Shown here piece after piece: positions 28,189-59,179 of a stretch of DNA of 64,000 bases. How positions within the stretch are numbered: position 1 is the stretch's first letter; every line of letters starts with the position of its first letter. Position numbers and translations under genes: made by a program. The stretch lies in assembly GCA_044892505.1 (NCBI GenBank), contig CM097882.1, positions 100,130,001 to 100,194,000 on the forward strand, in the 5' to 3' direction. The notes beneath the pieces were generated by a model. The model made no database searches. It was not told the origin of the DNA and saw only the letters and a list, made by a program, of their open reading frames with translations. This DNA is from Schmidtea nova (lineage: Eukaryota).

Positions 28189-28440
28189 ATTAATCTACTT
28201 TTATTTCATTTTTTTCTCTATTTGGCTGGCCCAACATCACTCGGGGACCCCTAAAATTGCGTCCCGCAATTAATTATACATTTACACCTATATCATCATA
28301 CATAAAAATTAAGCAGATAAATGTCAATTTACATATACACAAAGAATCACGTAAGGTGATAGATTTTATACGTAAGCACAAAGTCATATTATTGTTAAAT
28401 GTAAGTGGATCATACATAAAGTGAATGTAATATATCAGTT

Positions 28441-31655: not shown

Positions 31656-31745
31656 TCTACAATGATATATACACTTGATTTGTTATCTATTTTTTGATTT
31701 TTCTTGTTTTTGTTTTACATATTTACAATTTTTCGCTTTATTTAT

Positions 31746-32227: not shown

Positions 32228-35200
32228 CTATATCACCATCACTGTCTCTCCTTCGTATCGCTCTTCATCTTCTATTTGTCTCCAAAATTCTTTGCCTTTC
32301 GTCCTCCTTTGAAATTCTTTCTGTACTTCTTCCGGTAATTCTATACTGTAGTTCATAATCTTTATATCTGGCCAATGTGTTATTGGTTTCTTGTTGAATA
32401 CATCATATATCCATATTATTAATAATACTGTTATTACTGGAATAGTTGCTGCTAGTATTCCCAGACCAATTAGTTCTCTAACTTGTTTGTTTACGTCCAT
32501 CTTCGTAATTTCACTCTGGTTAATCATTGGTCCGTATTGTCCCTTTAGTTTATTTAGTAGTTGTTCTCGTTCTTGTTGTTTTCTTTTAACTTCTTTAATT
32601 ACTTCTTCCGGCGTCCATCTTGCGTAAGGGTCTATTACTACTTGTTCCGCGTCCATTTGTTTCGTTGTCTGACTTATTTCTTTAAATTCGAGTTTTCTCA
32701 CTTTCCCTTTGGACGTTGAGTTTACCGGTGTGTAGTACGTTTCGCATCTTTCCTGCTGATTTCCTAATATGTCCGTCTTTTCTACCGCACATATCTCGTA
32801 TTCGCTATTGAATTTCAGATTTCTGATACTTATTTCCTCTTTTCCTTTCACGTTTCCACAGTCTCGTGGCTGTCTTTCCCTTTGTTTCTGAACTATTACC
32901 CAACATATTTCTAACGTTTTATTGTCTATTCTCCATAGTATAAGAGTTGCTGTAGTATTCTTTTCGGTTCTTATTTGTATTTCTTGGTTTTTCTGTTGTC
33001 CATTAGGTTTAAAAGTAGTGGTATACCTCGTTTTTCCTTTGTTCCGTTGTCTTCTGCTTTTTCGCGTTGTCTTTCCAATTCTTGTTCTGGTGGGTGTTTT
33101 ATATATTTTGCATTCCAGTTCATTTACTGTTATTTTGTCGCTCTTCCTGATCAGGCATATTTCGTACGTTTGATTACTTTCTAACCCTTCTATCTGTATT
33201 GTGGTTGTTCCTCTGTTTGTTCGACATTGCGGCGGTGTATTCTGGTTTGTTTTCTTTTCCTGCTTCTTCCAGCATACGCCTTTGACGTCCGGTTCCATTC
33301 CGGTTAACTCTAACATTATAGTTGTTCTCCGTTTGGTGCGTTTATTTCTTCTTCCTCGTCGTATGAACTTTATTGTTTCCCCAGGTTGAAATGTTTTACA
33401 AATTGTCGTTCCTTTCTTGTGTCTTTCTTTTTCTAGTAAACATAGTTCATACGTCCTGTCTGCTTTTACTTCTGATATCTTGGTTACTTTATTTGTTTTC
33501 CTTTTCCGACTCGTCTTTATTTCGCTTACGCCAATTTCTTCGTTGCTTCTGGCCCAACACTTTGGGTTGGTGTTTTGGGTGTCGTTCATCTCTGTTACTG
33601 CCATTGTGTCAATGTCTATCCCTTCTTCTAACCGTTTTAACATTGTTAATATGAGTGCTAAACATAGTAATTCTGCTTGGTAGGTCACTCTTTCAGTTTC
33701 ATTTGTGGTTACTCTTACTTCGGGCCTGTCTATGGTAATTTGTATAGTTGGCGTTGTTCGTCTGTCTATTGTCTGAGGTTTCTTGTTTTTTGTTCCTTGT
33801 GTCTCTGTTCTTCCACACTTTCCTACGACATAGTCTCCTTTGGATGACTGCTGTACTGTTATGGTTACTTTGGGTGTTAGGTAATTTGCACATGCAATTG
33901 TCTTATGTGATCTCGGATCCTTTGGTTTCCGAACGGTGCACATTCTGTACCAAGTATCTAGCTCTAAGTCATCGATCTCTATGATTTCTTGTTCATATTC
34001 TGAGATCCTGCAATCCATTGGACTATTTTGTCCCGATATTTTGTCCTTTTTTGACCAACATACTCGTTCGATTCCTTTTGCGTTTCCAATTTGTATTGTC
34101 GCTTTTTCTTCACATATCATTCCTTGAGTTGGACTAATTAAGGTCATGATTACCGTTAGTAATAATAGTTCTGGTTTAAAGAATGGGTTTATTGTTTGTT
34201 TGTAGCCTGTTCTTTTTACTTCGTTTTTATTTTTATAGTTGTTGTTTCTTTGTTTCCCAAATTCATTGTTCTTATCATTTTTCTCTGTGTCCCTTCCTTT
34301 CTCTTCACTGTCCTCTTTATCTGATAACTCATGATCCTCTGGATTTTCTCGAGTACTATCGTCGTCGTTTCCTGTATTGTCACCTCCCCTTTGGTCGTTG
34401 AAAATGTCGTCCTCGACATTAACTGCTTCTATCATTTTTTCATACGTTATGGTTGTGAGTATACTTGCTTCGTATTCTTGTGTTACTGCCTGCTTAGGTA
34501 TTTCCTTATCGGTTAATTTACAATCTAGAATCTCTTTCTTGGCTTTTATCCAATTATTAAGGTACGTTTTCATTAGTTCTTTCCATTTGTCCGTACGTTC
34601 TGTTTCCTTTGGGTTGTTTGTGAATCGTAAATCTTTTCTTCTCATGAAGATGTCTATTATCTTTGGCCATTTGTTTATTATTAATGCACACTTTATATAC
34701 AAATTTTGGCCTTGTTCCATGCACTCGTTGATCCTGAATGCTGGTTCATTGGTGTTTGGGTTCATCCAATTGAGTATTGCTTCAGTTAGTTCAGCGTTAT
34801 GCATCATGGAATGTACGCTAGCTTTTTTAACTGTCCTTGTAAGGTATTCTATTTCCTCCTGATTTGTGATTGTTTTTATGAAATTTATCACCTCCCAATT
34901 GTGCGCTAACAACGCTACGTCTAGTATTGAGCTGTCTTTGTTAGTTCTTCCCATGAGTCCTGCACCTGCTTCGTACAGTTCCTGTAACACTCGGGTTTTT
35001 GTGTTCGCTCTTGCTGCGAATATCATGAGGGTATCTCCCTTTTTATCTTTCATGTTCATGTCACTTCCGCAATCTTGCATCAACCGTGCAATTTCGACTA
35101 CCCTCCTATCTTTTCCTGCTCGTAAGGCTCTATGTATTGGCAATACTCCATTCTTTGTTAATAAGAAAGTCACTGGCATTTCTCTTTTTATGATCATCAT

Positions 35201-38200
35201 ATCGTTTTCATTGTAAGTTCCTTCCGCATATGCGTGTACCTTTTCCACAATTGATCCGAGTATCTCCAGTGTATGTTTAGAATTCTCGAATTCTGGTAAT
35301 AGTTCTTTTGCTTTGTCCTGTATCGCATCTAACCTTTCTTGATATGGTACCTCTGCGCTGAAAAGTGGTGTAAATTTCCTTTTGCTTTCTCTTTCCTTTC
35401 GACCTAGGAATTGTTTGCATTTTTCGGGGTGGTTTAATATGTCTACTAGTTTGTCATACTCTTCCTCCACCGTTTTGTACTTATCTTGAAAATTGGATAT
35501 ATCTTTGTAAGTTATCGACTTGGTTAGCGATTTTGCACACCATTCCCTAATTTTCCTGAATAATGCTTCTTTTTCGCTTTCGAATTTACACTCCTCTTTG
35601 TTTTTGGAAATTGTGATCTTTCTTCTGTCCAATAATATTAACAGTGTTTTCTGATCACAAACTAATTTTAATAGGAATTGAAATAACGCGTTTTGTCCTT
35701 TACTGTATACTTCGTTTATATTTAATACCCATGTATCATTTTCGGATCTTTTCCATTTTATTAGCTTGCGTATTGTTTTGCAGTTACCGATTTTTATTGC
35801 CTCCTTGATTATATCACCTTTGATCAGTTCGTCTATTTCCCAAGTGGCCTTCTCGATTATTTGTTTGAGCATTATCTGATTTGAGCTCCATATTGCGTGA
35901 TTCAAGACTGTTTTGTTTTCTCTATCGCGTTCCGTCCAGTTGAAATCGGCATTTATCAAAAGGTCTATTATTGCTTTATCCGATTTGTAGATGGCTGCTA
36001 CCATTAATGGTGTTTCTTGTTCGCTATTCCCAAAACCAAGGTGTTGGTTTGTTTCCTTAGCGATTTTTAGAAATTCTTTTACTCTCTCTACTTCTCCCCA
36101 TTTTATGGCGTTATGTAATGCTGGTTGTCCTCCTATGTCTTCTAGTGAAAGTATTTCTGGAATCTTTTCCAGTAGTTCTGAAATGACTGGTTTTGTTGGT
36201 AGTCCCCTTGCGTAATCACTAATTATCGACTGAATATCTCTTAATATATCGTCTCTGACATGCCATTTTCCCATTATTTCTCTGGCTTTTAGTACAATTT
36301 CCTTGTTTCTTTTTTCTCGTTGATTGTTCTCTGCTTCGGTACTTTCATTGGTTGCTCTGAGCATATTCATTCTGGCTGTCTGGGATCTGGTTATTATTCG
36401 TTCTTCTGGCGCTGTGGTTATTGTCTTTGGTACTTTTTTACATCTGCATGTATTAACGTATATTGGTCGTATCAATGGTCGATTAACAAGTTTTACCTTC
36501 ACATTGTTTTCCTTTTTGTATATAACTTCGTAAGGGCCTTTTCCTGGTCTTTGTAGTTTTTTAACGGTTCCTGGTATTATTTCTGGGGTTTCTATCATCA
36601 CCCAATCTCCTGGTTTAAGATCATTTGTTTTAACATTTTTCTTTTGATCGTGTAGGTCCTTGTAACTTTCTTGGTAAAACTTTATGTTCAGTTCAGCTGT
36701 CTTCCATATCTCTTGCATTCGTTCTTTGAATTTGGTGACGTAATCATCTTCCTCCATATATTGAGACAAAGGTGGTTGATATTCAAGATCTATTGGCATA
36801 TTGCATTCCCTTCCATACATTAATTGAAATGGACTCAATTTTGTTGCTGCGTGTGTCGACATTCTGTATGCCATTAGACATAGCTTTACGTATTCATCCC
36901 AATCTGTTTGGTGTTTGCTTACATAATTGGATAACATTCGAATCAATGTGCCGTTAAATCTTTCCGTTTGTCCATTGGTTTGCGGATGATATGGTGACGT
37001 TCGTAATTTAGCTATTCTGAAGTAATTTGTTACTTCATCTAGTATTTCGCTCATAAAATTTGTTCCTTGATCTGTTAGTATTTGTTTCGGGGTTCCGTAT
37101 CGACAACATATTTCCTCTACTAAAATTCTTGCTACGGTCTTTGCTTTTTGATCCGGCATCGCAAATGCTTCAGGGAATTTAGTCAAATAATCCGTTATTA
37201 CCAATATATATTGATTCCCGTTTAAACTTTCTGGCAATGGTCCTATTACATCCATCGCAATGGTAGTCATTGGTTCCGCTGGTATTGGCATGGGTTTTAA
37301 GGGATTTTTCCATTTCTTCCCACTATCCTTTCTTGTGGCACAAGTTAAACAGTTCTTTATCCATTCCTTTACGTCTTCGTCCATTGTTGGCCAATAATAT
37401 TTCTGTCTCATACGATCTAATGTTTTCTTAGAGGACATGTGTCCTCCTAGCTTTCCGTCATGGTATTGAGTTATTATCTCTTTTCGTCTATTACTTGGCA
37501 GACACATTAATCGTTTTTCTCCATCTTGTATTAACAACCATCCTTTTTCTATTGTGTATCGGTGTTGGTATTTCCTCATGTGTTCTTTTAACTCCGCATT
37601 GTCTTCGAATACATCCATATTTCGTGAGCTTAGAAATTCTATGATGGGTTTTAGTTCTTTATCCTCTTGCTGATCTTTCTTTAACTCACTGAAATCCAAG
37701 TCCTCTGCTATCACTATGCATATTCTTTGCACTTCTGGGTCTGTTAGTTCTGGAAACGTTAATCTTGACATACAATCTGCGTTGGCATTCGCTTTTCCTG
37801 ATTTGAATTTTATATCTGGTGAATATTCTTGTAATTGCATCGCCCATCTCATCAACCTGCTGGATGTTTCCTTGTGTTGTCCTAGCCATACAAGTGGTTG
37901 ATGATCCGTGGTTATGCATATAACGTGTCCCCATAGTAGATATTTAAAGTGTTTTATTGCTAATATTATCGCCAATGCTTCTCTTTCCGTTACTGAATAA
38001 TTCTTCTCGTGTTTCTTGAATGTTCTGCTATAATATCCGATTACCCGCTCTTTTCCCTCGTCATCATATTGTCCTAACACTGCTCCTGCTGCATATCCAC
38101 TTGCGTCGGTTGCGAGTAAGAATGGCTTTTTAAAATCCGGGTGAACCAATATTGGTGCAGTTATTAACTTATCTCGTAATGTTTCGAAGGCTGTTTGTTG

Positions 38201-41200
38201 TTCGCTTCCCCATATGAACGATACGTCTTTCTTTACTAGCTCCTGGATTGGTTTTGCAATTCCTGCGTAATCCTTTATGAATTTTCTATAGTAACCGCAT
38301 AATCCGAGAAATTCTTGGATCTGCGTTATCGTCTTTGGTACTGGACATTCTTTTACTTTATCAATGTTTCTGGGATCTGGTTCCTTTCCTTTTGCGGACA
38401 CAATATGTCCTAAGAATGTCACTTTCTCTTTTGCCCAATCGCATTTCGATGGTTTGAGCTTGAGTTTCCATTGTCTCAATCTAACAAATACATCTCTGAT
38501 ATCTTGGATGTGTTGTTCAAATGTGCTTGAGTAGATCAGTAGGTCGTCAATGTAAACCATGCATTGTTTTATGCCGTGGGTAACGAAATTCATACATCTT
38601 TGAAATGATGCTGGCGCATTGGTTAGTCCGAATGGCATTTTCCTAAATTGGTACAAGTCTCTTCCGATAGTGAAAGCAGTTTTCTCTTTGTCTTCCTCCT
38701 TCATTTTAATTTGCCAGTATCCGCTTTTCAAATCCAATGATGTAAAATATGCCGCTCCTTGTAATGTCAATAACATCTCGTTGATGTCCGGTAATGGGTA
38801 GGTATCCCTTTTTGTAACTGCATTTAATCTCCGATAATCGATACAAAATCGTTGTGTTCCGTCTTTCTTTTTCACCATTACAACTGGGAATTGCCACGGT
38901 GAGCAGCTTGGTTCAATTACTTCTGCGTCTAGCATTTTCTGTACCTCTGCTTCTGCTACTGATTTTTGCGCTTCAGCTAACTTGTATGGTCTTAACGCAA
39001 TAGGCGTTTCGTCTGTTAGGGGAATCGTATGTAGTGTGACGTCGCATGTCCCTAGATCTAAATCGGATGCTGCGAATATATCTTTATATTCTATCAGTAA
39101 TCTTTCTAGCTGCTTCTTTTGATCCTCATTTAATAGTTGGCTATCAATGTTCCAAGTGGGTTCCTCCTCTTTTACTCCTTCTTTTATTGGTATTTCGATA
39201 TCCATCATTGGAGTTAGTTTACCTAGTCTTTCATTTTCATAAATTATTTTATCCTCTTCATCGAAATTTACTACAGTTATTGGGATTTCTCCGTTGTCAT
39301 TCGCACTCACTAATCCCCTTGCCATTGGCAACGACTTTCTCTTTTCAAATCTTTTACTGGGTTCAAAAATCATGTCACCTTCTATTGTAGGGTCTATTTT
39401 TACGAAGCATATTTTCTCTCTCCGTGCTGGTACGATTATTTGTTTCGAACTTGTTACTTTTGCTTCTATTGCGCATATCTGTCCTGTCCTATCCTTTAAT
39501 CTCATTGTTCCGAGGTCAATAACTATTTCTTTAAATAATGCTGGCATCAGATCCGTGCCTATAATGCATGGTACGCTCAGTGCTGGTATTACTGCTACGT
39601 ACGTTTCGATTTCCGTGTTTTGATGTTTTATCTTTACCCACCATCTTCCGGCAACTTCTACTACTTCTTTACTGCATGCTATTACGTGAACGTTGGTTCT
39701 CTCAATATCCCGTCTTTGTTCTTGTGGTATCCATTTTATATCTATTGCTGAGATATTTGCTCCTGTATCAATCATCGCTTCAATTTCCCTTCCGTTAATT
39801 TCGATTGTTGTAGTTAATACTGGACCGGTGTTTGATGACATTACTGCAATTGTATGTGAGTCCCCTTGCGGATCTACGCTTCTGCACCGTCTCGTTCTAT
39901 AGTCTTCTGGTATCATAGGATATATGTTTGTCATCGGCATCATTTGCATTGTATTTTGTCTCATCCCTGGTGTTGGTTCTTGGTACATAGTTGGTGGGGG
40001 TGCGTAACACTTCCACATTTCCGCTGGATTCTTTTCGACATACTGTGGTACTTGATTTTTAAATACTTGACCTCCTTCGTTATCATCATCATCGTCGTCA
40101 CTGGAATCGTCTTGGGTTCTGTACCCTTTCATTCTTTCCCATAGTCCTTTTCTCTCTTTCTTTAGTTGTTGTCTTGCTTGCTCGTTATTCATTATCTTTT
40201 TAAATTTTCGTCCCACCTCTTCATCGGTTCCTTTCATTTTTGCCAGTATTTTTAGGAGTCTCTTTATTCGGTGAATATCTTTTGAATGACCGTGTAATAC
40301 CATTGTTTTAGCCAAAAATGGTAAGAATCCTACCACCAATTTCCAATTTACTTTCTTTTCTCTTTTATAGATGTCAAAACAGGCTAACATTTGCGTTATT
40401 ATTACCCGTATTATTTGTATAATTAGTATAACACCAAGTATTCCTGCCATCATTTGTCCAAATATTAAAAATCTTCCCCACATCGCTTTCATCATGTTTT
40501 CCGTTGCCTTCTTAAAGTGGGCTGGTGACAATAATAATTCGTAATTTGGTCCACCTTGGTAATTTGTTCCTCCTGTTATTGTTACAATGCTGGATAACAC
40601 CGCTTCCCTTCTTGCTGGAAATAGTATGTTTTGTCTTGCTGCTTCTAAATCCTTTGCACTATAGAATCCCATATTGCTTACATCTACGTCTTTAAATTTT
40701 CTTCCTTTTGATAGTTGCATTAATTCAAATTCTCTTGGTGCTGGTACCTCTGTTCGTGACGGAAACATAACCCAATTTCCGTCTGGTTTTTGGTATAGTG
40801 GTCCATATGCGTTGCTGCAATTGAAAGGGTTTGGTTCGAAGCTTACTGGATTTATGATTCTTGTCACTGGTTGCACATATCTTACCTTCCCTTTGTATTC
40901 GATTTCTAGTTCGTTTGTACACTGCCCTGGTTGTAATTTTGTCATTGTCGCTACCTTCGCATTTGTCTTTTTACATATGTATACATACATGACCTCTCCG
41001 ACTACCCTTCCAAAATGACCTTCTCTTAATGGTAATAATGGCATTGCACTGTCCGGGTTTGTGATTGCTACCGCTAGTTTTGTCTTTAATATTTCCCTAT
41101 TTAATATGCAATCGTTGTTTATTAAATCGTAATACACTTTTTGTAGTGACGCTTGTCCTCTATGGAATAGAAAATCCATTTTATTGTTCATGTAAAGGTG

Positions 41201-44200
41201 TAATTTAACATCGTTCGTGTGTACTTTGCGTTTCGCACTAGGTACTTCTTGTTTTGATACAAAAATGCCGGGGTAGTTGGTTTCCAACATGGCTACTCCG
41301 CATTTCAAGGCTGTTTTTCCTTTTACAAACCTCATTCCGATATCTGCATCTGAGGTAATTAGTACCGTTGGTGTATTTCTCATTTTAATTTGTTTTTCTT
41401 GTGTTCGGGTTTCAATCTTTTTCTCTCCCCGTACTGTGTCTTGAAGTATTTTTCCTCTTGCTGCCTCGTCTTCTTCTTCCTCTTGGAAGGTTTTCCCTTG
41501 TATCTCATCGAATTCTGCTTCCTTTAACAGTTGTAGTTGACATTCCTTTCCTCGTATCTGGTAGGTTAGGGTTGACATACCAGTCTGACAAGTGTTTGAC
41601 TCGATTTTGCACATAGGTAGAGTTTTCATTTCTCCCGTCGTTGGATCGAAGAATGCCTCGTACGTTTTTAGTTCCACTGTATACGTATCTATTACCACTA
41701 GGTTTGTTGCTGCTACTCCGAATATTGGATATGTTGCTCCTTGGCAGTACCCTTCTCCTCCCGTAATAGCTCCTGCTACATAATATGTTTGTTGCAATAT
41801 CACTCCCGTTTTTCCTCTTATCTTTACTCTATCTCTAGTCTCTACTTCTCCATGTTTAAATAATTTTTCACAGTCTTCTCCTTGCAGCATTACCGATTCT
41901 CTTTCCGTTCCTGGCATCACGATTGCTGAATAATGGCGGTGCCCACAATAAAAAGCAAATCTGGTTTTATAAATTTTGCATTCTCTGACCATTGTTCTTA
42001 TCAGTTCAGCTTCCTGATATACGTGGTATAATTGTCTCTTTTTTAATGTTTTTAGCTCCGTTGGGGTTGCGTCTTTACATTGTTCTGTCCCTCGTAATGA
42101 GTATTTTTCCCCTAATGCCATTTGATCGCAATCGAATACTTCAAATGCTGTTGCGCCGTCAGTACTAATCATCCATATTAACATCATCATAATAATGGAA
42201 CTCAAGTTTAGTGACGATTTCCCGTTTCCTGTTCCCGACTTTTCCTTTTCCAATTCTCCCAATATCTCTTCGAATTTCCTTTTCATATTTTTGGCTTGGT
42301 TTTTCTTTTGGTTCGTTTCTGTGAATGTTTCCCATCCTCCTTTACTGATGATGTACGGTTCTATTTCCTTCTCTATAATTTTGGCTGTATTCTTTATATG
42401 TCTTTCAAGTGCTGTGGGTTTCAGTCGACCTCTACTCAGTGTCAGCAGATTGTAGATGGTGTATGCCATAGCTATTAAATATTTGTTATCCGTCTCTGCT
42501 CCTTCCGTTAACTTCTTTATCAACATCGTGGTTCCTTGCCAATCTAGGTGGTTTGACCTTGTCTTCTCTTTTATTAATTCTGGTAGGATTGGTGCGATGG
42601 CGCTATGCAGTGATTTCGCCCTTTCGCTTATTTCGTTTATTCTCCACCATTTCTTTAATTCTGGATCGATTATTGCCAGTATTTCCATTAACATCTTTGA
42701 TATCCATTCCTCGCCTTGGTATGTTTGTGTTGTTTCTTTTTCTTTCGTTTCGGCTATTTTATTTAGTTTCTTTAAACACAAATCCCATTGATCCCGTCTT
42801 TTTTCCTCTCTTGATTTTATAACTACATTTGCTGGATCCATCTTGGGTCTACCTCTAGGTCGTTTATCCATTGTCGTGCCCGTTTCTACCAATCTTGTTT
42901 CTCGTCCAGTTTCTTCTGTGACGTCTCTTGGTTCATTGGCTCTTTCTTCTAACCATCTTTCCATTTCTTGTGTGAATTGTACATTTTCTACATTTGCCCT
43001 CCTTGCTTCCTCTTCTGCTATTTCATTTACTTCTTCGATGATTATTTCTTGTTCAACTTCATCTTCGGTGTTGGTTACCGGTATTGCTGTTGGTAATTCT
43101 TGAATTCTTTCGAAAATATTATCATCCTTCTCTTTTGTTAGCTCTATTAACTCCTCTAACATATCATCGCTATCTGTAAAAATTTCGTCTACATCGTATG
43201 GTTCTGGTGGTGTTCTTTCTCTTGTCTCTCTTGGTGTTGTTTTAGCTTGTTCTGAGCTTGTTCCTGGAGTCATTACCGATTTCATTGGGCTCGGCGTACT
43301 CATACTTCCTTTTGGTTTCTTTTCCTCTTTCAATTTCAATGGTTGGCCTGCTATTGCTGCCACTGTCAATGTATTTGCGATATCTAATTGCGCTGGCGTT
43401 ATTCCAATTTCCAAGCTGTTATCTAATGATCGTCCTTGGTGTTGTAAATGGAATGGTGGTTCATATCTCAATTTCTTTTTAATGTCTCGAACTTTCTCCG
43501 CTATCCCTACCCAAAACTCTTCCTTTTCTTGGTTCGGATATACTATTCTTAGGTGTACTTTCTGTGGCGATTCCTGCGAGAATTCTTGGTTTCTCCATTT
43601 TTTAATTACGTGATCCAATTGTTCTGGACACCACTCGTTAACTCTTTTGTATTCGGCGATTGCTTTTGCTACTTTACGCAAGCATGTTATGTCTTCTCCA
43701 TTAACTACGAAAAAATCTGCGAGACCTTTTACTACTTTTCTCTTGCCGTGCGCATTGGTTTTTAATATTTCGACAAATTCTTCCGTTTTTTGTTTTTCTC
43801 TTTCCAACCACATGGTTGTCGTTTCTGGTCCGTCTAAATCTGCTGGCATGGCTTTTCTTGTTACCATACAGACTCTTCCGGTTTCCGGTTTGTGATCGTC
43901 TTCTATGCCTATTCCGTATTCCTCTTCGTATTCGCCTGCTTTTGGTTCCCAACATTTTCCTCGTTCGTTCCATTGTTTTTCTACAGGTGTTGGTAATCGT
44001 CTGTTGAGATTGAGTTCTTCTAATACGTCTTCCCATTCTGGCCAAATCCGCCAATTTCGATAAATGTCTACTATTTGTTGTAATTTATGCACAACTTCTT
44101 TTTGTCGTTCCCGTTCTCTTTTCTCATCCTTAGCAGTTTCTCTTGGTGTATCGTCCATTCTGATAACGTGGATGGTTTGGTGATTATCCCATATACCAAT

Positions 44201-47200
44201 TTTATATAGCCGTCTTTCATCGTGATCCCATAATACATGTTCGTTATATTTCATGATTATGTCATCTTCCCATTCTTCTTCTGGTTCTCTTTGTAATAGT
44301 GTCTCGTTGATGACATTTACTAATTCTTTTATGGTACAATCTGCTACCACTTCAATTTCTTTGGTATCCTCATTAGGCAGTTCCACTGAAATTTTTAGAT
44401 CTGTTATTTTTCCTTGTCTAAACATTGCTTTTCCCATTTTGGCAATTACTTTTCCGTATGAGATCTGTGACCATCTCGTGTGACTTGTGTCACGTATGCA
44501 CTCGATACATCGTTTCAACTTTTCGTATTCGCTTCTCATTAACTCCTTTCTATGTTTTTTGATTTGTGGGATGATTTGTTCTATCATGGAATTTAGATTT
44601 CCTCGTAAGATTCGTCCTTTTTCGTATTCTAACCGTGGTTTTATCTTCCTCTCGAAACACATATTTGCTTCTTTTGCTACTTCTTGTAGGTTCTCTTCTC
44701 TCTTATCATCGCATATCGATAATGTTGTCACCTCTCCTGGCCATATGCCTGTTTCTATCAAATGCGTCCTTTTCTTCACTAGTCCATTCTGTGAATAGAG
44801 GAATTTGTTTTTATATGAACTCCCTAATCTATCTTCTACCCATTGATAGATATCTTCCGTGAGTGGAGTTTTGATCCAAATCCTTGGCAAACATGTTTTT
44901 ATCTCTATTAGGATTATATATTCATGGAGTGGTTCTTTTAATAATTTTCCTACGTATTGGCTTAGTGTTTCTACTTCCCGGCCTGGTAACCACTCTTTAT
45001 AGTTCATTTGTAATATTGCTCTCATGAATTTTCTATAGTGTTTCTTGTCAATGAATTCCTCATTATATATTACTTCTAGCGCGTTATCTAATAATTTCTG
45101 GATCTCGTCCTCTTTTACTTGAATAGTTTCTGGTGTCTTTACTACTTCTATCTTTTTGTCTTCAATTTCCGGTTCGTTTAGCATATCTCCGGCTAGACTA
45201 CTGACGTCACTATCCTCTTCGTCATCTGAGAATTTCTTTGCCTGGCCTCTCAACATGTTAATGTGTTTTATTTGGTTGATTTCACTTGGTGTATTTTCCG
45301 TTGGTCTTGTTTCACTTTTAATAGCTTTTTGTGTTGATTCACTCTTGTCGTCTACTACTCCGACCTTTCTCATTTTTCGTTCTAACTCGTCTATTTCTCC
45401 CAACCGTCTTCGTATCATTTTCCCTTTAAATATTCGACTGATTCGTGTTTCGTGACGCACTGGCGATGGAATTCCTTCTGGTTCTATTTCCTTGATTACC
45501 ATCACATTTCTTTTTGTCTCTACTACTCCCAGGTTTTCCCATGTATCCGTTAGTTTCAATTTTACTTCTGGTGCACCTTCTATTTTTAGGAATGCTTCTC
45601 TGGGCAGTTTCGTTACTCCTGGAGCCATTTCATTCACTTTATTGAACAATATTTCTACTTCTTCTTTTATGTTATATTGGAATCGAAACACGTGCTTGTT
45701 TGGCAAAATTACCATCATTCCTCTTTTCCCGAGTTTCCTTTTCTCTTCTTGGTTCCCTTCTTTTTCTACTTCCTTTTCTGTTTCTTTTTCTGCTTCTTCA
45801 TCTTCTTGTATTATCTCTTTTCGGCCTTCGTTGTTGGTTGGATTCGGGTTTGTTGGATTTATTTCTGGTACAGTCTCTTTCTCGTGGGTATTTGTTTGAT
45901 TGGTTGCTCTCATCATATTAATTCTTAGAGGTTGTCGTTCTCTTTCTTGCTGTTTTTGTTCCTCTTCTCTTTGTATTCTTGCCCATTCCTGAGCATGTCG
46001 TGCTTGACTTTCCCGATTCAATCGTTCGTTTTCGCTTTCTATTTTCCTCATCATATTGATTTGTTGTTGACCTGTTTGCGGATTTCCTCTGGTTGTATTG
46101 TTTATCAGCTCCGTCAATCTTTGGACCTCTTGCATTAAATGTATCTCTTTAGTGGTATTTTTATTTTGGTTATTATTATTACTATTTGGTTGGTTTCCGT
46201 ATTCCGGTTGGTTTCCATTATTTGGCTGATTTCCATAATTCTGTCGATTTCCACCAGTTGGTTGGTTTCCATAGTTTTGTCGGTTTCCGGTATTCTGCCA
46301 GTTTCCTCGTTGATTGCTTCTTTGTCCGCAATTTCTTGATAGGTGTCCAGGCCGTCCACAATTAAAACAGGTTATTGTGTAACATCTGCTCTCTGAATGC
46401 CCTTTTACTCCACATTTTCCACAATTCAAGTTCTGATAACATTCTTGTTGCCAATGTCCCAATTTCCCACATGTTTTGCATTGTTTCGTTGGTCCTTGGG
46501 GGTTGTAATTGTTTTGATTTCCGTAATTTGATACTTTATTCCCTTCATTCCTTCGTTGCGGTGGTGGTCGGTTTAATTGTTGTGAATTTGGAATGTGGTT
46601 ATTCAGGTTCACTTCTTGTTCGTTTTGTGCTGTATCCATAGCTAAATAGATTCTACCATCATTTCCTATCATGTGTAGTTCAAATCTATTAGCTGTTTCT
46701 AGTGCTTGGTCGATGGTTTTACACCCTTGACATCCAACTTGCGCTCTTATGTCGGGTCTTCTTAATCCTCCCACAAAGATAGCTGCCATTAACTCCTCAT
46801 TTATTGGGCTGTCTTGATTAAAGATCAACTTTGCTAACTTTTTCAATTCGCTTGCATATACCGCATTCGATTCATTTATCTTTTGTTTCCTCATTGAGAA
46901 TTCCGTGAATGCCTCATTCAATACTTTATTTATTCCAAAGGTTTGTTGGAAAAAGTCCTTTATCGCTGACCAACTTGTAGGTGGATTAGTTCCATTCTTT
47001 GCTTCCAAATATAGATCTAATGCGCTATCTTTCAAATATAGCTGAATTCTGCTTACAGTTGTTTCTGGTTTCCACTTGCATACTTCCACGAATATGCCAA
47101 ATTCCTTTAAGAAAGTTTCTAATTTACTCGCATCTCCATTAAACGGTTCTCCGGAAAATTTGTCTTTTATCTCTTCTCTTGGTTCACTCATTTCGATTCC

Positions 47201-47617
47201 GCTGTCTGTAGTTATTTTACTTTCGTTTCCTCTTGTTTCTAGTTCACTGTTAGGTTCGTCACTTGAATTTCGGTCGATCTCAGTTTCCTTTGCTGATTCG
47301 TTATCTGATGCTTTACTATCGTTATCGGTGTCGTCACTTTCTGTTTCTTGTTCTACTTCGTCTTCTATTTCTTCTATATAATCGTTGTTGGTTTTGTCGA
47401 CTTCTATTTCACTTATTGGGTTTCTCTCGGGTTCTGCTTGATTTTCTTTGTTGCTTGAACTGTTGCTTGTTACTGATAATTTATCGTTTTCGATAATCGA
47501 CTTTTGTATTATTATCTGCCTTGCTTTACTTCCTTTTGGGCCTTTCTGATTATTATTCTTGGTAGCTTTATTCTTTTCTGCTGGTTTTATTATGACACTC
47601 TTTTCTCCTTTTCTCAA
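32228..47617 (-). CDS. Single ~5,100-aa Gag-accessory-Env-Pol-ANK-FN3 polyprotein (track start is TTG; first ATG at 47191)
   Basis: 5,129 codons without a stop, carrying Gag, CCHC x3, DTG protease, YIDD RT, RNase H, HHCC/DDE integrase and additional domains. Confidence 0.97.
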   Translation of the reverse strand: MRKGEKSVIIKPAEKNKATKNNNQKGPKGSKARQIIIQKSIIENDKLSVTSNSSSNKENQAEPERNPISEIEVDKTNNDYIEEIEDEVEQETESDDTDNDSKASDNESAKETEIDRNSSDEPNSELETRGNESKITTDSGIEMSEPREEIKDKFSGEPFNGDASKLETFLKEFGIFVEVCKWKPETTVSRIQLYLKDSALDLYLEAKNGTNPPTSWSAIKDFFQQTFGINKVLNEAFTEFSMRKQKINESNAVYASELKKLAKLIFNQDSPINEELMAAIFVGGLRRPDIRAQVGCQGCKTIDQALETANRFELHMIGNDGRIYLAMDTAQNEQEVNLNNHIPNSQQLNRPPPQRRNEGNKVSNYGNQNNYNPQGPTKQCKTCGKLGHWQQECYQNLNCGKCGVKGHSESRCYTITCFNCGRPGHLSRNCGQRSNQRGNWQNTGNRQNYGNQPTGGNRQNYGNQPNNGNQPEYGNQPNSNNNNQNKNTTKEIHLMQEVQRLTELINNTTRGNPQTGQQQINMMRKIESENERLNRESQARHAQEWARIQREEEQKQQERERQPLRINMMRATNQTNTHEKETVPEINPTNPNPTNNEGRKEIIQEDEEAEKETEKEVEKEGNQEEKRKLGKRGMMVILPNKHVFRFQYNIKEEVEILFNKVNEMAPGVTKLPREAFLKIEGAPEVKLKLTDTWENLGVVETKRNVMVIKEIEPEGIPSPVRHETRISRIFKGKMIRRRLGEIDELERKMRKVGVVDDKSESTQKAIKSETRPTENTPSEINQIKHINMLRGQAKKFSDDEEDSDVSSLAGDMLNEPEIEDKKIEVVKTPETIQVKEDEIQKLLDNALEVIYNEEFIDKKHYRKFMRAILQMNYKEWLPGREVETLSQYVGKLLKEPLHEYIILIEIKTCLPRIWIKTPLTEDIYQWVEDRLGSSYKNKFLYSQNGLVKKRTHLIETGIWPGEVTTLSICDDKREENLQEVAKEANMCFERKIKPRLEYEKGRILRGNLNSMIEQIIPQIKKHRKELMRSEYEKLKRCIECIRDTSHTRWSQISYGKVIAKMGKAMFRQGKITDLKISVELPNEDTKEIEVVADCTIKELVNVINETLLQREPEEEWEDDIIMKYNEHVLWDHDERRLYKIGIWDNHQTIHVIRMDDTPRETAKDEKRERERQKEVVHKLQQIVDIYRNWRIWPEWEDVLEELNLNRRLPTPVEKQWNERGKCWEPKAGEYEEEYGIGIEDDHKPETGRVCMVTRKAMPADLDGPETTTMWLEREKQKTEEFVEILKTNAHGKRKVVKGLADFFVVNGEDITCLRKVAKAIAEYKRVNEWCPEQLDHVIKKWRNQEFSQESPQKVHLRIVYPNQEKEEFWVGIAEKVRDIKKKLRYEPPFHLQHQGRSLDNSLEIGITPAQLDIANTLTVAAIAGQPLKLKEEKKPKGSMSTPSPMKSVMTPGTSSEQAKTTPRETRERTPPEPYDVDEIFTDSDDMLEELIELTKEKDDNIFERIQELPTAIPVTNTEDEVEQEIIIEEVNEIAEEEARRANVENVQFTQEMERWLEERANEPRDVTEETGRETRLVETGTTMDKRPRGRPKMDPANVVIKSREEKRRDQWDLCLKKLNKIAETKEKETTQTYQGEEWISKMLMEILAIIDPELKKWWRINEISERAKSLHSAIAPILPELIKEKTRSNHLDWQGTTMLIKKLTEGAETDNKYLIAMAYTIYNLLTLSRGRLKPTALERHIKNTAKIIEKEIEPYIISKGGWETFTETNQKKNQAKNMKRKFEEILGELEKEKSGTGNGKSSLNLSSIIMMMLIWMISTDGATAFEVFDCDQMALGEKYSLRGTEQCKDATPTELKTLKKRQLYHVYQEAELIRTMVRECKIYKTRFAFYCGHRHYSAIVMPGTERESVMLQGEDCEKLFKHGEVETRDRVKIRGKTGVILQQTYYVAGAITGGEGYCQGATYPIFGVAATNLVVIDTYTVELKTYEAFFDPTTGEMKTLPMCKIESNTCQTGMSTLTYQIRGKECQLQLLKEAEFDEIQGKTFQEEEEDEAARGKILQDTVRGEKKIETRTQEKQIKMRNTPTVLITSDADIGMRFVKGKTALKCGVAMLETNYPGIFVSKQEVPSAKRKVHTNDVKLHLYMNNKMDFLFHRGQASLQKVYYDLINNDCILNREILKTKLAVAITNPDSAMPLLPLREGHFGRVVGEVMYVYICKKTNAKVATMTKLQPGQCTNELEIEYKGKVRYVQPVTRIINPVSFEPNPFNCSNAYGPLYQKPDGNWVMFPSRTEVPAPREFELMQLSKGRKFKDVDVSNMGFYSAKDLEAARQNILFPARREAVLSSIVTITGGTNYQGGPNYELLLSPAHFKKATENMMKAMWGRFLIFGQMMAGILGVILIIQIIRVIITQMLACFDIYKREKKVNWKLVVGFLPFLAKTMVLHGHSKDIHRIKRLLKILAKMKGTDEEVGRKFKKIMNNEQARQQLKKERKGLWERMKGYRTQDDSSDDDDDDNEGGQVFKNQVPQYVEKNPAEMWKCYAPPPTMYQEPTPGMRQNTMQMMPMTNIYPMIPEDYRTRRCRSVDPQGDSHTIAVMSSNTGPVLTTTIEINGREIEAMIDTGANISAIDIKWIPQEQRRDIERTNVHVIACSKEVVEVAGRWWVKIKHQNTEIETYVAVIPALSVPCIIGTDLMPALFKEIVIDLGTMRLKDRTGQICAIEAKVTSSKQIIVPARREKICFVKIDPTIEGDMIFEPSKRFEKRKSLPMARGLVSANDNGEIPITVVNFDEEDKIIYENERLGKLTPMMDIEIPIKEGVKEEEPTWNIDSQLLNEDQKKQLERLLIEYKDIFAASDLDLGTCDVTLHTIPLTDETPIALRPYKLAEAQKSVAEAEVQKMLDAEVIEPSCSPWQFPVVMVKKKDGTQRFCIDYRRLNAVTKRDTYPLPDINEMLLTLQGAAYFTSLDLKSGYWQIKMKEEDKEKTAFTIGRDLYQFRKMPFGLTNAPASFQRCMNFVTHGIKQCMVYIDDLLIYSSTFEQHIQDIRDVFVRLRQWKLKLKPSKCDWAKEKVTFLGHIVSAKGKEPDPRNIDKVKECPVPKTITQIQEFLGLCGYYRKFIKDYAGIAKPIQELVKKDVSFIWGSEQQTAFETLRDKLITAPILVHPDFKKPFLLATDASGYAAGAVLGQYDDEGKERVIGYYSRTFKKHEKNYSVTEREALAIILAIKHFKYLLWGHVICITTDHQPLVWLGQHKETSSRLMRWAMQLQEYSPDIKFKSGKANANADCMSRLTFPELTDPEVQRICIVIAEDLDFSELKKDQQEDKELKPIIEFLSSRNMDVFEDNAELKEHMRKYQHRYTIEKGWLLIQDGEKRLMCLPSNRRKEIITQYHDGKLGGHMSSKKTLDRMRQKYYWPTMDEDVKEWIKNCLTCATRKDSGKKWKNPLKPMPIPAEPMTTIAMDVIGPLPESLNGNQYILVITDYLTKFPEAFAMPDQKAKTVARILVEEICCRYGTPKQILTDQGTNFMSEILDEVTNYFRIAKLRTSPYHPQTNGQTERFNGTLIRMLSNYVSKHQTDWDEYVKLCLMAYRMSTHAATKLSPFQLMYGRECNMPIDLEYQPPLSQYMEEDDYVTKFKERMQEIWKTAELNIKFYQESYKDLHDQKKNVKTNDLKPGDWVMIETPEIIPGTVKKLQRPGKGPYEVIYKKENNVKVKLVNRPLIRPIYVNTCRCKKVPKTITTAPEERIITRSQTARMNMLRATNESTEAENNQREKRNKEIVLKAREIMGKWHVRDDILRDIQSIISDYARGLPTKPVISELLEKIPEILSLEDIGGQPALHNAIKWGEVERVKEFLKIAKETNQHLGFGNSEQETPLMVAAIYKSDKAIIDLLINADFNWTERDRENKTVLNHAIWSSNQIMLKQIIEKATWEIDELIKGDIIKEAIKIGNCKTIRKLIKWKRSENDTWVLNINEVYSKGQNALFQFLLKLVCDQKTLLILLDRRKITISKNKEECKFESEKEALFRKIREWCAKSLTKSITYKDISNFQDKYKTVEEEYDKLVDILNHPEKCKQFLGRKERESKRKFTPLFSAEVPYQERLDAIQDKAKELLPEFENSKHTLEILGSIVEKVHAYAEGTYNENDMMIIKREMPVTFLLTKNGVLPIHRALRAGKDRRVVEIARLMQDCGSDMNMKDKKGDTLMIFAARANTKTRVLQELYEAGAGLMGRTNKDSSILDVALLAHNWEVINFIKTITNQEEIEYLTRTVKKASVHSMMHNAELTEAILNWMNPNTNEPAFRINECMEQGQNLYIKCALIINKWPKIIDIFMRRKDLRFTNNPKETERTDKWKELMKTYLNNWIKAKKEILDCKLTDKEIPKQAVTQEYEASILTTITYEKMIEAVNVEDDIFNDQRGGDNTGNDDDSTRENPEDHELSDKEDSEEKGRDTEKNDKNNEFGKQRNNNYKNKNEVKRTGYKQTINPFFKPELLLLTVIMTLISPTQGMICEEKATIQIGNAKGIERVCWSKKDKISGQNSPMDCRISEYEQEIIEIDDLELDTWYRMCTVRKPKDPRSHKTIACANYLTPKVTITVQQSSKGDYVVGKCGRTETQGTKNKKPQTIDRRTTPTIQITIDRPEVRVTTNETERVTYQAELLCLALILTMLKRLEEGIDIDTMAVTEMNDTQNTNPKCWARSNEEIGVSEIKTSRKRKTNKVTKISEVKADRTYELCLLEKERHKKGTTICKTFQPGETIKFIRRGRRNKRTKRRTTIMLELTGMEPDVKGVCWKKQEKKTNQNTPPQCRTNRGTTTIQIEGLESNQTYEICLIRKSDKITVNELECKIYKTPTRTRIGKTTRKSRRQRNKGKTRYTTTFKPNGQQKNQEIQIRTEKNTTATLILWRIDNKTLEICWVIVQKQRERQPRDCGNVKGKEEISIRNLKFNSEYEICAVEKTDILGNQQERCETYYTPVNSTSKGKVRKLEFKEISQTTKQMDAEQVVIDPYARWTPEEVIKEVKRKQQEREQLLNKLKGQYGPMINQSEITKMDVNKQVRELIGLGILAATIPVITVLLIIWIYDVFNKKPITHWPDIKIMNYSIELPEEVQKEFQRRTKGKEFWRQIEDEERYEGETVMVI
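32398..34175 (-). other. Polyprotein domain: second signal peptide, four FN3-like repeats, C-terminal TM
   Basis: PELLLLTVIMTLISPTQG|MICEE. Repeats show CW...IDDLELDTWYRMC / ISEVKADRTYELC / IEGLESNQTYEIC / IRNLKFNSEYEIC, multiple N-X-S/T sequons, and TM LIGLGILAATIPVITVLLIIWIY. Confidence 0.7.
34880..36145 (-). other. Polyprotein domain: two ankyrin-repeat clusters
   Basis: GGQPALHNAI, ETPLMVAA, KTVLNHAI, GVLPIHRAL, GDTLMIFAA, SSILDVAL. Confidence 0.85.
36480..37480 (-). other. Polyprotein domain: integrase (HHCC, DDE, GPY)
   Basis: YHDGKLGGH..CLTC; IAMDVIGPLP; LTDQGTNF; GQTERFNGTL; GKGPYEV. Confidence 0.95.
37780..39010 (-). other. Polyprotein domains: reverse transcriptase and RNase H
   Basis: RFCIDYRRLN, LDLKSGYWQI, MPFGLTNAPASFQ, YIDD (38543-38554); TDASG, TEREALA, TTDH. 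Confidence 0.97.
39480..39830 (-). other. Polyprotein domain: aspartic protease
   Basis: EAMIDTGANIS (DTG at 39761-39769) and CIIGTD. Confidence 0.95.
40290..42215 (-). other. Polyprotein domain: chuvirus/Jingchuvirales-type fusion glycoprotein (Env) with internal signal peptide and TM
   Basis: Signal IIMMMLIWMISTDGATA|FEVFDC. Conserved Cys pattern and motifs FYCG, TNYPGIF, LYMNNK, GEVMYVYIC, CTNEL, QPVTRI and GFYSAKDL..ILFP; TM at ~40380-40472. Confidence 0.8.
42320..42712 (-). other. Polyprotein domain: BCL2-like helical domain
   Basis: ~130-aa all-helical segment ending EPYIISKGGWETF, a BH2 motif (cf. BCL-xL EPWIQENGGWDTF); the canonical BH1 NWGR is absent. Confidence 0.65.
43352..45725 (-). 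other. Polyprotein region: three to four ubiquitin-like folds alternating with helical segments
   Basis: Examples: LKISVELPNEDTKEIEVVADCTIKELV..LYKIGIWDNHQTIHV; LRIVYPNQEKEEFWVGIAEKVRDIKKKL..HLQHQGRSLD; LIETGIWPGEVTTL. Confidence 0.5.
46150..47191 (-). other. gag: Polyprotein domain: Gag (capsid-like region, three CCHC knuckles, N/Q/G-rich repeats)
   Basis: FSGEPFNGD..RKQKINES..FVGGLR; CKTCGKLGHWQQEC, CGKCGVKGHSESRC, CFNCGRPGHLSRNC (46328-46480); GNRQNYGNQP repeats. Confidence 0.93.
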
Positions 47618-48165
47618 CGGGATTACTTTTGTATACTCAATTTTCCTGTCTTATCGTGTTCCGATTCTTTTCTTCCTTAGTTGATTGGTTTGGTTTGATT
47701 GATTTATCTAAAATACAAATGTCACTTCAACGATACTCTATTGTTATCGTTGCGCTTTTATTCCCTTTTTACGGGACTTCTCATTACTGGGTTTCTATTA
47801 TTTTTCCCCATTCCCAGATTCCCCTTTATTTAAGTCTATTTAAATTATCTATATACTAGTCACAATTATCTATTTAGTCATAACAATTATCTATCGGTTA
47901 TTAAAATACATCAATTATTTTTCCCGCGGTCTCCCAATTTATTTGTCGTTCGAACGCTCTAATTCCCTGAGTCATTTGACTCGATTATTATTTTTTCATC
48001 TCTTTATCTTTCTCTCTGCTAGCCTCTAATTATTAATTCTGCCGGTCTTTCCGGTCAGCTCCTATTTCTCAATTCTACTTGCATGCATTATTTTAGGTCG
48101 CATAATCAGCTTTACTCGCATTTCTCAATTCCTGGTGCGCACTATTCTCATTATCGTCGACGATC

Positions 48166-49326: not shown

Positions 49327-49788
49327 TTATAAATAAACTACAATTCTATCAGCTACAGAGAAATTGCACATGGGGCACTCATCACACTTATTCGCACAGT
49401 TTTTACAGAATCGAAAATGTCCGCATGGTAGAAACATTATTTGGATTTCACTGTCTTCGCATATGTAACATTGTTTATATTGTTTTGCTGCTTCGACCCC
49501 TTGTGACATCCATCGGTTATATGTTAGGCTTAACTGCTGTTCTATATGTCGGCATCTGATATTCAACTCGGCATCCTCTAATCGTGCTTTGTACCATTTA
49601 TATCGCGTATTTATATCGAGTTTATTTACTTTCTCTATGATTTTTATTAACTCAGTTGTTTCCTCAGTTTGTGTCGTAGGTTCCTCATATTCGGATGCTC
49701 TTATTCGGGTTATTTTTTCGCAGACTGTCTCAAATGTATCGTTCTCGGTGTTGAAAAATTCCTCGATTTCTTTCAGTTTTTCCTCCAT
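49327..49788 (-). CDS. Upstream accessory ORF, 153 aa, with a C-terminal IAP/MDM2-type RING finger (no BIR)
   Basis: CYICEDSEIQIMFLPCGHFRFCKNCANKCDECPMCNFSVADRIVVYL at the extreme C-terminus; ATG start. Confidence 0.9.
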   Translation of the reverse strand: MEEKLKEIEEFFNTENDTFETVCEKITRIRASEYEEPTTQTEETTELIKIIEKVNKLDINTRYKWYKARLEDAELNIRCRHIEQQLSLTYNRWMSQGVEAAKQYKQCYICEDSEIQIMFLPCGHFRFCKNCANKCDECPMCNFSVADRIVVYL

Positions 49789-50092
49789 TTCCTAGATAAT
49801 TTATTTAATTACTGTGTTAATATTATTCGAAAAGTAGTACTGTGTTTCGTTTCTGACAGTTTTATAGCCTCCCCCCGTGTTTCGGTAAATTGTCGTCCCG
49901 ACCTGTTATTTATGAATGCATTTGTTCAATATATCTACTAATTTGTTTTAATTCCCTGTCTGTAATTATCTATTTCCACGCAACTCACTTTTATCTCGAT
50001 TACTCTTTCGGTTACTATTTCTACTCACAAAATTCTGACTTTAAATTTCTCTGTTGTCATTGGGTTCACCTTTTCCGCATAAAACAAAGTTG

Positions 50093-50110
50093 ATCCCGGC
50101 TGAGCCCCCA
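50093..50110 (-). promoter_or_regulatory. Primer-binding site, tRNA-Pro
   Basis: Minus strand TGGGGGCTCAGCCGGGAT lies 6 nt inside the 5' LTR boundary and matches 16/18 of the MLV tRNA-Pro PBS TGGGGGCTCGTCCGGGAT. Confidence 0.88.
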
Positions 50111-50643
50111 AATTTATGCTGGGATTATGGGTGGGTTTTAAGTAATTCAAATAAACAATTAATCATACTAGGGATTCCGCGCCCATAACCATACATAACA
50201 TGACTACTACACGCGTATGCCCTTGACTATTCCCTACTAGTCAAGTTGGTACTGCATACGGTGGTGGAAAAATGATGGGCAGGTGAGCTTTGTCGCCAAA
50301 ACTACTCCCCATTTATCTTCCCTCGGGTTCTTGCTGCCGATAGAAGGTCTTACGCATTTACATTCTATGGATGTTCGTTTCCTACTGAATTTTATACTAC
50401 ATATCCTTATGATCTATCACACGCTTTTCCCAATGACGCTCTCCCTCGCTGTTCTACAAGCCTACGAAAACTCTCGCTGCTAAGTAACGGTCGGTGTAGG
50501 TTTTACGATGCGATTTTTAGTTCTACGAATTACTTATGTAGTCTTATTTTATTTAGTGAAATCACACGATGAGAGAAAAAATTTACACAGTAATACTTTA
50601 TTAAAATAATAAAGACAGGTTGTTATGTTACATGGAGATTTTC

Positions 50644-51228
50644 CTATTCAAACTCCAGGCTAATCTCCTGGATTAACTCTGCTTCGGTTAAGGAGTTCAG
50701 GTGGTGAATTTGTTCGTCCAGGCGCCTTGCAAATTCTCGGCGACGACGACGCTGTCGCGATCCCATTCGATGTTTTCGAAGCTGTGGGTTTATGACCGGT
50801 GCTGACGCTATTGTTCTCGGGGGATCACTGGGAAAAATAGGCAAATCTTCCGTTGTAAGAGTGGGTGCCATGATGATTTCCTCTTCCGTCCCGCAAGCGA
50901 CATCTTGGTGAGTGCATTGTATCCAGCGCTGAGCCGTGATCGGTCGGATTAGCGCTCGTAATTCGGAGTCGATGTAACTTCTTGTTACTGCGTTCAGGCA
51001 ATTTCGGAGTTCTCGCTGGACGGCATCCAGTTCCAATTTGGTTGTAGCCAATGCTTCCTGCACTCGCTCGAGTTTTTTCGACTGGTCCTTCATCTGTTCG
51101 GGCGAGAACCACTTCGCTTTCAATTCATCATTGGCGACCGTGAGTCGCTTGATCTGTCGCTGCTGGTCCCTCAGCTTTCTCTCTTGAATTTGTCCCATGA
51201 TTTTCTTCGAATTTTCTGAAGTCGGCAT
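50644..51228 (-). CDS. LTR ORF-B copy (194 aa)
   Basis: Translation identical to 25318-25902. Confidence 0.8.
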   Translation of the reverse strand: MPTSENSKKIMGQIQERKLRDQQRQIKRLTVANDELKAKWFSPEQMKDQSKKLERVQEALATTKLELDAVQRELRNCLNAVTRSYIDSELRALIRPITAQRWIQCTHQDVACGTEEEIIMAPTLTTEDLPIFPSDPPRTIASAPVINPQLRKHRMGSRQRRRRREFARRLDEQIHHLNSLTEAELIQEISLEFE

Positions 51229-51544
51229 GTTGTCTGAAGATTATAACGATAAATTCACTGGAGGGCCTATCAACAATGTTATTTTATTTAAACAACTATT
51301 ATTATTATTAAACGAGATGTATATTAATGTTTTTAATTGTTGAGTTCTCTACAAAATTATTTACATATCTAATCATTGAAGACTCAAAAGGTTTATTGAA
51401 CTAATTTTATATTAATAAATGAATTTCCTAATGACTATAACAACTACAATACTAAATCTACAGGACAACACTATTAACAAAACGAACATTTCAGAATTCT
51501 TTAAAACATTTATTTAACTTAAAAACAGGCGGCCATTGATTCAG

Positions 51545-59170: not shown

Positions 59171-59179
59171 CACTTGATA

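Follow-up and report, generated by a model that had tools for sequence, protein, structure and literature searches.

The 64,000-nucleotide stretch of the Schmidtea nova genome analysed here (GCA_044892505.1, contig CM097882.1, positions 100,130,001 to 100,194,000; hereafter the window) contains a giant Burro-type Ty3/gypsy retroelement of 28,772 bp, located at 24791-53562 on the reverse strand. Within its first open reading frame (ORF1), in frame between Gag and the aspartic protease (PR), lies a gene for a class III envelope glycoprotein (Env), which is likely processed in the manner of an RNA-virus polyprotein; we assign this reading as a whole a probability of about 0.7. The frame, the domain order, the fold class, purifying selection and recent copying are all documented by the analyses below. 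The Env region consists of the following features:

42146..42217 (-), internal signal sequence, aa 1812-1835, recognised by hydropathy, with a predicted signal-peptidase site A-x-A before FEVFDC
40478..42145 (-), fusion ectodomain of 556 amino acids (aa) with 14 Cys, starting with FEVFDC, from PF24664, alignment and AlphaFold2 model
40367..40477 (-), membrane-proximal helix and transmembrane segment (TM), aa 2392-2428, from hydropathy, insertion score and model
40295..40351 (-), second, weaker hydrophobic patch, aa 2434-2452, from hydropathy, insertion score and model

The ectodomain affiliates with PF24664 (Monjiviricetes_fusion) with an E-value of 4.5e-72 and 243 bits against a gathering cut-off of 27. 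A homologue search among 1.84 billion representatives yielded 992 matches at E-values up to 0.001. The best were long polyproteins with sequence identities of 26-41%, and stand-alone proteins of ~650 aa ranked next; identity to stand-alone G proteins was 20-28%. The best stand-alone match (P0025) is a named chuvirus glycoprotein, and further ones are insect endogenous copies. In an alignment of 109 rows all 14 ectodomain Cys were at least 90% conserved, and the profile of this alignment retrieved herpesvirus glycoprotein B (gB) in 33 of its 36 matches in the Protein Data Bank (PDB), over the central helix and with a best E-value of 0.0036. A PDB search with the Env as single sequence gave no match, and word-based homologue searches returned one longer protein and, for the alignment, none. 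A match of 28 aa from a metagenome scan was discarded as spurious, its locus having no similarity to the polyprotein.

The AlphaFold2 model of the ectodomain (pLDDT 89.3, pTM 0.71) comprises beta-rich N-terminal domains, a 48-residue central helix (mature residues 315-362) and an extended C-terminal arm. In a structure comparison with 48,161 chains (VIA-align), the top four matches were herpes gB (Z 9.5, 8.9, 8.0 and 7.2; root-mean-square deviation (rmsd) 6-7.5 over 390-422 aligned residues), led by gB of herpes simplex virus 1 (HSV-1; Z 9.5, rmsd 6.7, 400 residues aligned) and followed by that of human cytomegalovirus (HCMV; Z 8.9). The glycoproteins (GP) of Bourbon and Thogoto virus and domains of rhabdovirus G appeared at Z 5-6, amid a helical background. 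Language-model neighbours of the ectodomain were the clusters of PF24664, rhabdovirus G and gB. No R-x-x-R (furin) site was found in the ectodomain, and F-type folds were absent among the best structural matches listed. Because the model ranks herpes gB first, the ectodomain is assigned to class III (herpes gB/chuvirus-type) by its modelled fold. An initial annotation of the window had proposed a chuvirus-type class III glycoprotein and had named the lack of a profile or structural match to class III or Jingchuvirales glycoproteins as a refutation; PF24664, the gB profile matches and the structural ranking provide such a match. The Cys pattern that it described is likewise present, and the ectodomain length of ~580 aa is reached only when the TM is included (556 aa without it).

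In the alignment, the internal signal falls on the same columns as the signal peptides at the N-terminus of stand-alone G proteins. Small residues occupy position -1 of FEVFDC in 76 of 96 rows and position -3 in 81 of 96, the window itself having A-x-A, which is consistent with the earlier proposal of an internal signal cut before FEVFDC. Membrane insertion was scored with a rough implementation of our own that uses approximate Hessa-scale values. The score was favourable for the TM in all 14 polyprotein rows (median -1.3). The second patch was insertable in none of them (median +2.6), and 12 of the 14 have Cys there, as in palmitoylated cytosolic tails, so that this region may be palmitoylated. 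The AlphaFold2 model breaks it into short helices after a Pro. The patch is therefore probably a cytosolic juxtamembrane helix and not a second TM, and Pol would lie on the cytosolic side of a single-pass TM, in agreement with the topology first suggested for it. Two natural variants would fit an even number of membrane crossings before Pol: in P0151, Pol is preceded by two hydrophobic segments instead of one, and the Env-less copies described below have lost signal and TM together.

Trees were calculated with FastTree from 97 of the 109 rows (12 were dropped for coverage below 80%) and with IQ-TREE from 30 rows. In the latter, unrooted tree, 13 polyprotein-embedded Envs form one side of a branch with support of 100/99. 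The sister group of the element Envs consists of P0123, P0044 and P0103, and the chuvirus protein P0025 stands elsewhere on a long branch. Env is followed by PR and reverse transcriptase (RT) in P0001, P0005, P0011, P0012 and P0016, and Gag features precede it in P0003, P0015 and P0016. Two or more retroviral protease domains follow Env in P0001, P0002, P0003, P0015 and P0151, some of them also located after the integrase (IN). The gag-env-pol polyprotein P0005 is filed under a Flavobacteriaceae metagenome-assembled genome and is probably a host or eukaryotic contamination of the bin. The S. nova genome contains a second high-copy family (L021-L030) with about 30% identity, frames of up to 3,442 aa and the order Bcl-2-like domain, signal, Env, TM and PR.

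The element is flanked on both sides by the 4-bp target-site duplication (TSD) GAAC. The order within ORF1 is Gag, spacer, Bcl-2-like domain, internal signal, ectodomain, TM, PR, RT, RNase H (RH) and IN, ankyrins, and a second set of signal, ectodomain and TM. Its main features, with the long terminal repeats (LTRs), are:

50117..53562 (-), 5' LTR, 3,446 bp, TG...CA, 100% identical to 24791-28236 with 0 mismatches
24791..28236 (-), 3' LTR, 3,446 bp, pair to the 5' LTR
50093..50110 (-), primer-binding-site-like 18-mer just inside the 5' LTR, same 5' part in 4 of 5 sister copies
32228..47650 (-), ORF1, one stop-free frame of 5,140 codons from stop to stop
46328..46480 (-), Gag CCHC zinc knuckles, aa 391-441, PF00098 E 2.8e-7
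39539..39811 (-), aspartic protease with DTG at 39769 (aa 2628), PF00077 E 2.1e-8
38399..38875 (-), reverse transcriptase, PF00078 E 8.9e-38
37823..38212 (-), RNase H, PF17917 E 1.2e-38
36983..37498 (-), integrase, H2C2 and core (PF17921, PF00665), after RH as in Ty3/gypsy
35849..36118 (-), ankyrin repeats, PF12796 E 1.9e-14
30276..31682 (-), accessory TRAF-like ORF (zf-TRAF and MATH) downstream of ORF1, PF22486 E 2.1e-21
49330..49791 (-), accessory RING-finger ORF upstream of gag, PF13920 E 6.8e-12

The first ATG of ORF1 is at 47191 (codon 154) and leaves 4,987 codons. The 18-mer inside the 5' LTR presumably resembles the 3' end of tRNA-Pro; no tRNA genes were found in the window. The LTRs with TG...CA ends, the TSD and the Pol order PR-RT-RH-IN place the element within Ty3/gypsy, and the Pfam set (RT_RNaseH and Integrase_H2C2, with Pao peptidase and DUF5641 unmatched) fits this affiliation. 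Its size, the ORF1 of ~5,000 aa, the BCL2-like/env/ankyrin content and the TRAF and RING cargo agree with the Burro type, for which PMC6431247 describes lengths of 25-30 kb and cargo of the TRAF and RING/IAP type. The DTG of the protease lies 200 aa beyond the TM in the same frame as Env. The position of Env upstream of the DTG protease in one frame thus stands as initially annotated; its position directly after Gag does not, since a spacer of ~1,370 aa, ending in the Bcl-2-like domain, separates the zinc knuckles from the signal.

The element has been copied recently and is under purifying selection. Of 3,811 candidate matches in the genome 68 were scored, so that the numbers are a lower bound: all 68 were 99-100% identical, and 23 of them lie in a 5,140-aa open frame. 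Forty copies were hand-picked from 150 integrase hits, irrespective of the Env sequence and deliberately including ten absent from the Env hit list. The ratio of nonsynonymous to synonymous substitution rates (dN/dS) was calculated for the first 20 copies against the window in three identity groups and amounted to 0.042, 0.072 and 0.043 for Env, the last group with saturated dS. Between subfamilies, identities were 79-84% in the ectodomain, 96-99% in RT and 96-97% in TM and tail. These values bear on the possibility that the glycoprotein is a viral insert that is merely carried along, its frame kept open by nothing other than its continuity with Pol. Stops in Env would then be selected against merely for truncating Pol, and the transposition of Env-less lineages is compatible with such a passenger. 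Yet amino-acid-changing substitutions are purged and not just stops (dN/dS 0.04-0.07), and families with no more than 26-40% identity have all retained the signal, the 14 Cys and the TM. This explanation is largely refuted and appears highly improbable.

Env is retained in 28 of the 40 copies; 3 are truncated and 9 are without the whole Env cassette in frame. The latter (L042, L043, L053-L058 and L061), from a sister subfamily, carry an in-frame deletion of the block of spacer, Bcl-2-like domain, Env and TM, which is located at a short direct repeat and spans 5,385 nt in six copies and 5,388 nt in three. At the junction the Gag-side spacer is joined to the pre-protease linker, and signal and TM are both removed. 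Their frames are ~3,330 aa long, which suggests that the C-terminal membrane module is kept. Among five Env-less copies checked at both ends, three have distinct 4-bp TSDs and LTRs that are 99.5-99.96% identical, one with 99.9% identical LTRs lies in a simple repeat and one is unclear at its ends. The Pol of the Env-less copies is under purifying selection. For two of them, the Pol of an Env-bearing copy is more similar (99.7%) than that of most other Env-less copies, a pattern suggestive of recombination or of more than one deletion event. In-frame Env-less copies have transposed, so that copying within the cell can proceed without Env, and without a tether of Pol through it, in cis; help in trans is possible. 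The initial idea that Env tethers Pol to the budding membrane was to this extent not supported.

The Env-less forms could also indicate that Pol is produced mainly from spliced or deleted Env-less RNAs and that the long ORF serves chiefly Env, the second patch being a true TM or the internal signal being often skipped. The patch is conserved in viral and element homologues and is insertable in 10 of 79 stand-alone proteins, and in-frame Env-less forms do exist. However, the patch is TM-like in none of the 14 polyprotein rows, with Cys in 12 of them, and is broken into short helices after a Pro in the model. Among the copies examined from a subfamily with 93% identity in the integrase, almost all have an env that shares its frame with pol. 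Splicing was rejected as the source of the Env-less copies because their junctions fall within a short direct repeat and still contain the GT, which splicing would have taken out. We consider this explanation improbable. No env-skipping joint was listed in contigs from three of four runs of one study, the kind of contig not being on record, so that this result is silent on expression.

Two features of ORF1 are relevant to the processing of the polyprotein upstream and downstream of Env:

42281..42541 (-), Bcl-2-like domain, BH1-BH2 part, from a profile match to Bcl-xL residues 120-205, E 2.2e-4
39827..39853 (-), candidate protease self-cleavage site just before PR, predicted from a motif, with a similar one before PR in P0151

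The Bcl-2-like domain is otherwise weak (single sequence E 0.66; Pfam Bcl-2 E 0.12, below the cut-off) and ends ~25 aa ahead of the hydrophobic core of the signal. We take the tail anchor of Bcl-xL to be located at roughly the position equivalent to the internal signal. The motif [IVM][NC]M[MLV][RT] occurs five times in ORF1 (aa 531, 577, 797, 1260 and 3761) against 0.04 occurrences expected from 1,000 shuffles, this strict form having been chosen after it was seen. Looser versions are found on either side of PR and ahead of IN, with none in Env; they also hit the C-terminal repeats and RT. Judged from the sequence, the repeated motifs may represent sites of the element's own protease. The proposal that signal peptidase cuts Gag from Env was not supported: Gag proper lies ~1,370 aa upstream and has its own candidate protease sites, and the cut would separate Env from a product of the Bcl-2-like spacer.

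A further membrane-associated region is located at the C-terminal end of ORF1:

32393..34171 (-), second membrane module with a signal-like stretch (aa 4494-4508), four Cys/Trp repeats, a hydrophobic patch within the module (aa 4657-4675) and, at its C-terminal end, a TM (aa 5057-5086)

The Cys/Trp repeats are only weakly similar to FN3 (fn3 E 0.14). A module of signal to TM after the integrase also occurs in P0001, P0005 and P0151.

In the mechanism that we propose, the internal signal would start translocation into the endoplasmic reticulum (ER), and signal peptidase would cut before FEVFDC, leaving the signal on the Bcl-2-like product upstream, where it would act as a tail anchor. Transfer would be halted by the TM, so that PR-RT-RH-IN would be made in the cytosol on the Env tail, and the element's protease would then free Gag and Pol at the repeated sites. 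Env would form trimers and mediate the entry of particles into further cells, for example stem or germ cells.

Several observations weigh against this combination of a class III Env and polyprotein processing. The structural match is moderate (Z 9.5 with an rmsd of 6.7), and the recognition value in the language-model atlas, 1641, is below the mark of 2300. The two Cys-Gly hairpin tips, candidate fusion loops, are only mildly hydrophobic and His-rich here, and the ectodomain carries a single N-glycan sequon, where stand-alone homologues have a median of four. The topology depends on the rough score described above, by which the second patch is insertable in some stand-alone homologues (10 of 79) and near-insertable in P0015 (0.66); Lys and Arg before and after the TM have medians of 4 and 4, so that the positive-inside rule is no discriminator. 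A BH2-like motif was present in 4 of 15 proteins checked, and the Bcl-2-like domain is absent from many relatives, for which reason a tail-anchor role cannot be general. Lastly, the equimolar Gag:Env:Pol expected from one ORF is left without explanation.

The hairpin tips in particular bear on the reading that Env is a functional membrane protein with a role other than particle entry, which anchors the Gag-Pol precursor, clusters the protease at the ER or plasma membrane, or fuses neighbouring cells for non-enveloped particles. Besides the weak hydrophobicity of the tips, the higher conservation of TM and tail (96-97% identity between subfamilies) than of the ectodomain (79-84%) would agree with such a role, and the available passages of PMC13524379 (section 11) describe the entry mechanism of gB-type elements without gD/gH/gL as unknown. 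However, a whole class III ectodomain with 14 Cys is under purifying selection, an exposed entry protein would be expected to diverge faster in its outer than in its inner part, and the replication of Env-less copies indicates that anchoring by Env is not essential in cis. Such a role seems unlikely, less so than production of Pol mainly from Env-less RNAs.

A wider version of the entry model can be offered tentatively, as a possibility that we hold to be doubtful. The element would be an enveloped virus in endogenous form, and its single polyprotein would be threaded through the membrane two times. The Env signal would serve as the Bcl-2-like tail anchor, and Pol would lie between the Env tail and an FN3-like type I protein, which may be the receptor-binding partner of the gB-like fusogen. 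The Env-less copies would be dependants that recombine with full-length genomes. The young high-copy family allows a direct test of the processing model, and the Env-less in-frame derivatives are a natural control for the role of Env. With entry in the absence of gD/gH/gL left open in the passages of PMC13524379, the family offers a candidate partner protein and candidate cleavage sites.

Further open frames and repeats were observed in and around the element. Two accessory frames are located 3' of the TRAF ORF: a coiled-coil-like one of 368 codons at 29099-30202 (-), and one of 197 codons with signal-like and TM-like stretches at 28444-29034 (-). The LTR contains open frames of 198 codons (50647-51240, -) and 176 codons (51548-52075, -), repeated in the other LTR and without a Pfam match. 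Three short tandem-repeat arrays with units of about 45, 41 and 30 bp lie at 48150-48852, between the RING ORF and gag. Beyond the element, inverted fragments resembling an LTR end and its flank are found at 21927-22365. Other fragments of mobile elements were recognised by eye at 62045-64000 (-), 59459-60382 (-), 14129-14695 (+) and 58426-59304 (+); by kind they were an RT of another LTR element, a Penelope-like RT, an integrase piece and a hAT-like frame.

An env in frame between gag and pol is already published for planarian elements. PMC6431247 (2019) locates a region of env homology in Burro elements between BCL2 and PR and describes it as the first example of an env that lies between gag and pol in frame, and PMC13524379 reports GAG-ENV-POL with a gB-type env in flatworms, nematodes and bryozoans; the gag-env-pol order, which the initial annotation contrasted with the usual position of env 3' of pol, is thus not new. 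Burro1-4/GYPSM1 of Schmidtea mediterranea and the Dugesia tigrina element of PMC6431247 resemble our element as giant gypsy elements, the Dugesia tigrina ORF1 of 5,140 aa comparing with 5,140 codons here. As described there, Burro elements also share with it the CCHC Gag, the BCL2-like motif, the env between BCL2 and PR, the ankyrins and a TRAF domain on a separate ORF. The Burro env was found to match mononegavirus fusion glycoproteins of arthropods and fish, and the paper ties it to gypsy Env and the baculovirus/paramyxovirus type, in contrast to the class III fold modelled here; the TRAF ORF is upstream in those elements and downstream in ours. Section 7 of that paper contains no model of signal/TM processing, second membrane module or Env-less derivatives, the likeness being judged by description only. 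BURRO1 is under piRNA control according to PMC8532177, in whose passages no mention of env was found.

The elements in the passages of PMC13524379 share with ours the Ty3/gypsy pol, the gag-env-pol order, the chuvirus-like env of gB fold and the many near-identical copies. Their ectodomain is flanked by a signal and a TM or by two TMs, and six S. mediterranea families are listed. Judged by eye only, their family 5 is similar to the present Env, and their family 1 is similar to the second S. nova family described above. These passages do not mention polyprotein processing, a Bcl-2-like neighbour or Env-less in-frame derivatives. Likewise, neither the processing model nor the second membrane module nor Env-less derivatives are described in the literature surveyed, an incomplete set without its figures.

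Anakin elements of mosquitoes, with a chuvirus-derived glycoprotein of the same Pfam family, have a BEL/Pao backbone (PMC7642597, in the passages available), and in P0053 the glycoprotein follows DUF5641, outside the gag-env-pol clade; in our element Env is 5' of PR and Pao domains are absent. Capture by gypsy elements was not found in arthropods, as stated in the available part of PMC10084718. Among viral proteins, the G proteins of Jingchuvirales/Monjiviricetes, herpesvirus gB, thogotovirus GP and rhabdovirus G are linked to our Env by PF24664, the Cys pattern, the signal register and the gB-like fold. In contrast to these viral class III glycoproteins, our Env, with 20-28% identity to stand-alone G, is part of a retroelement polyprotein and carries fewer sequons.

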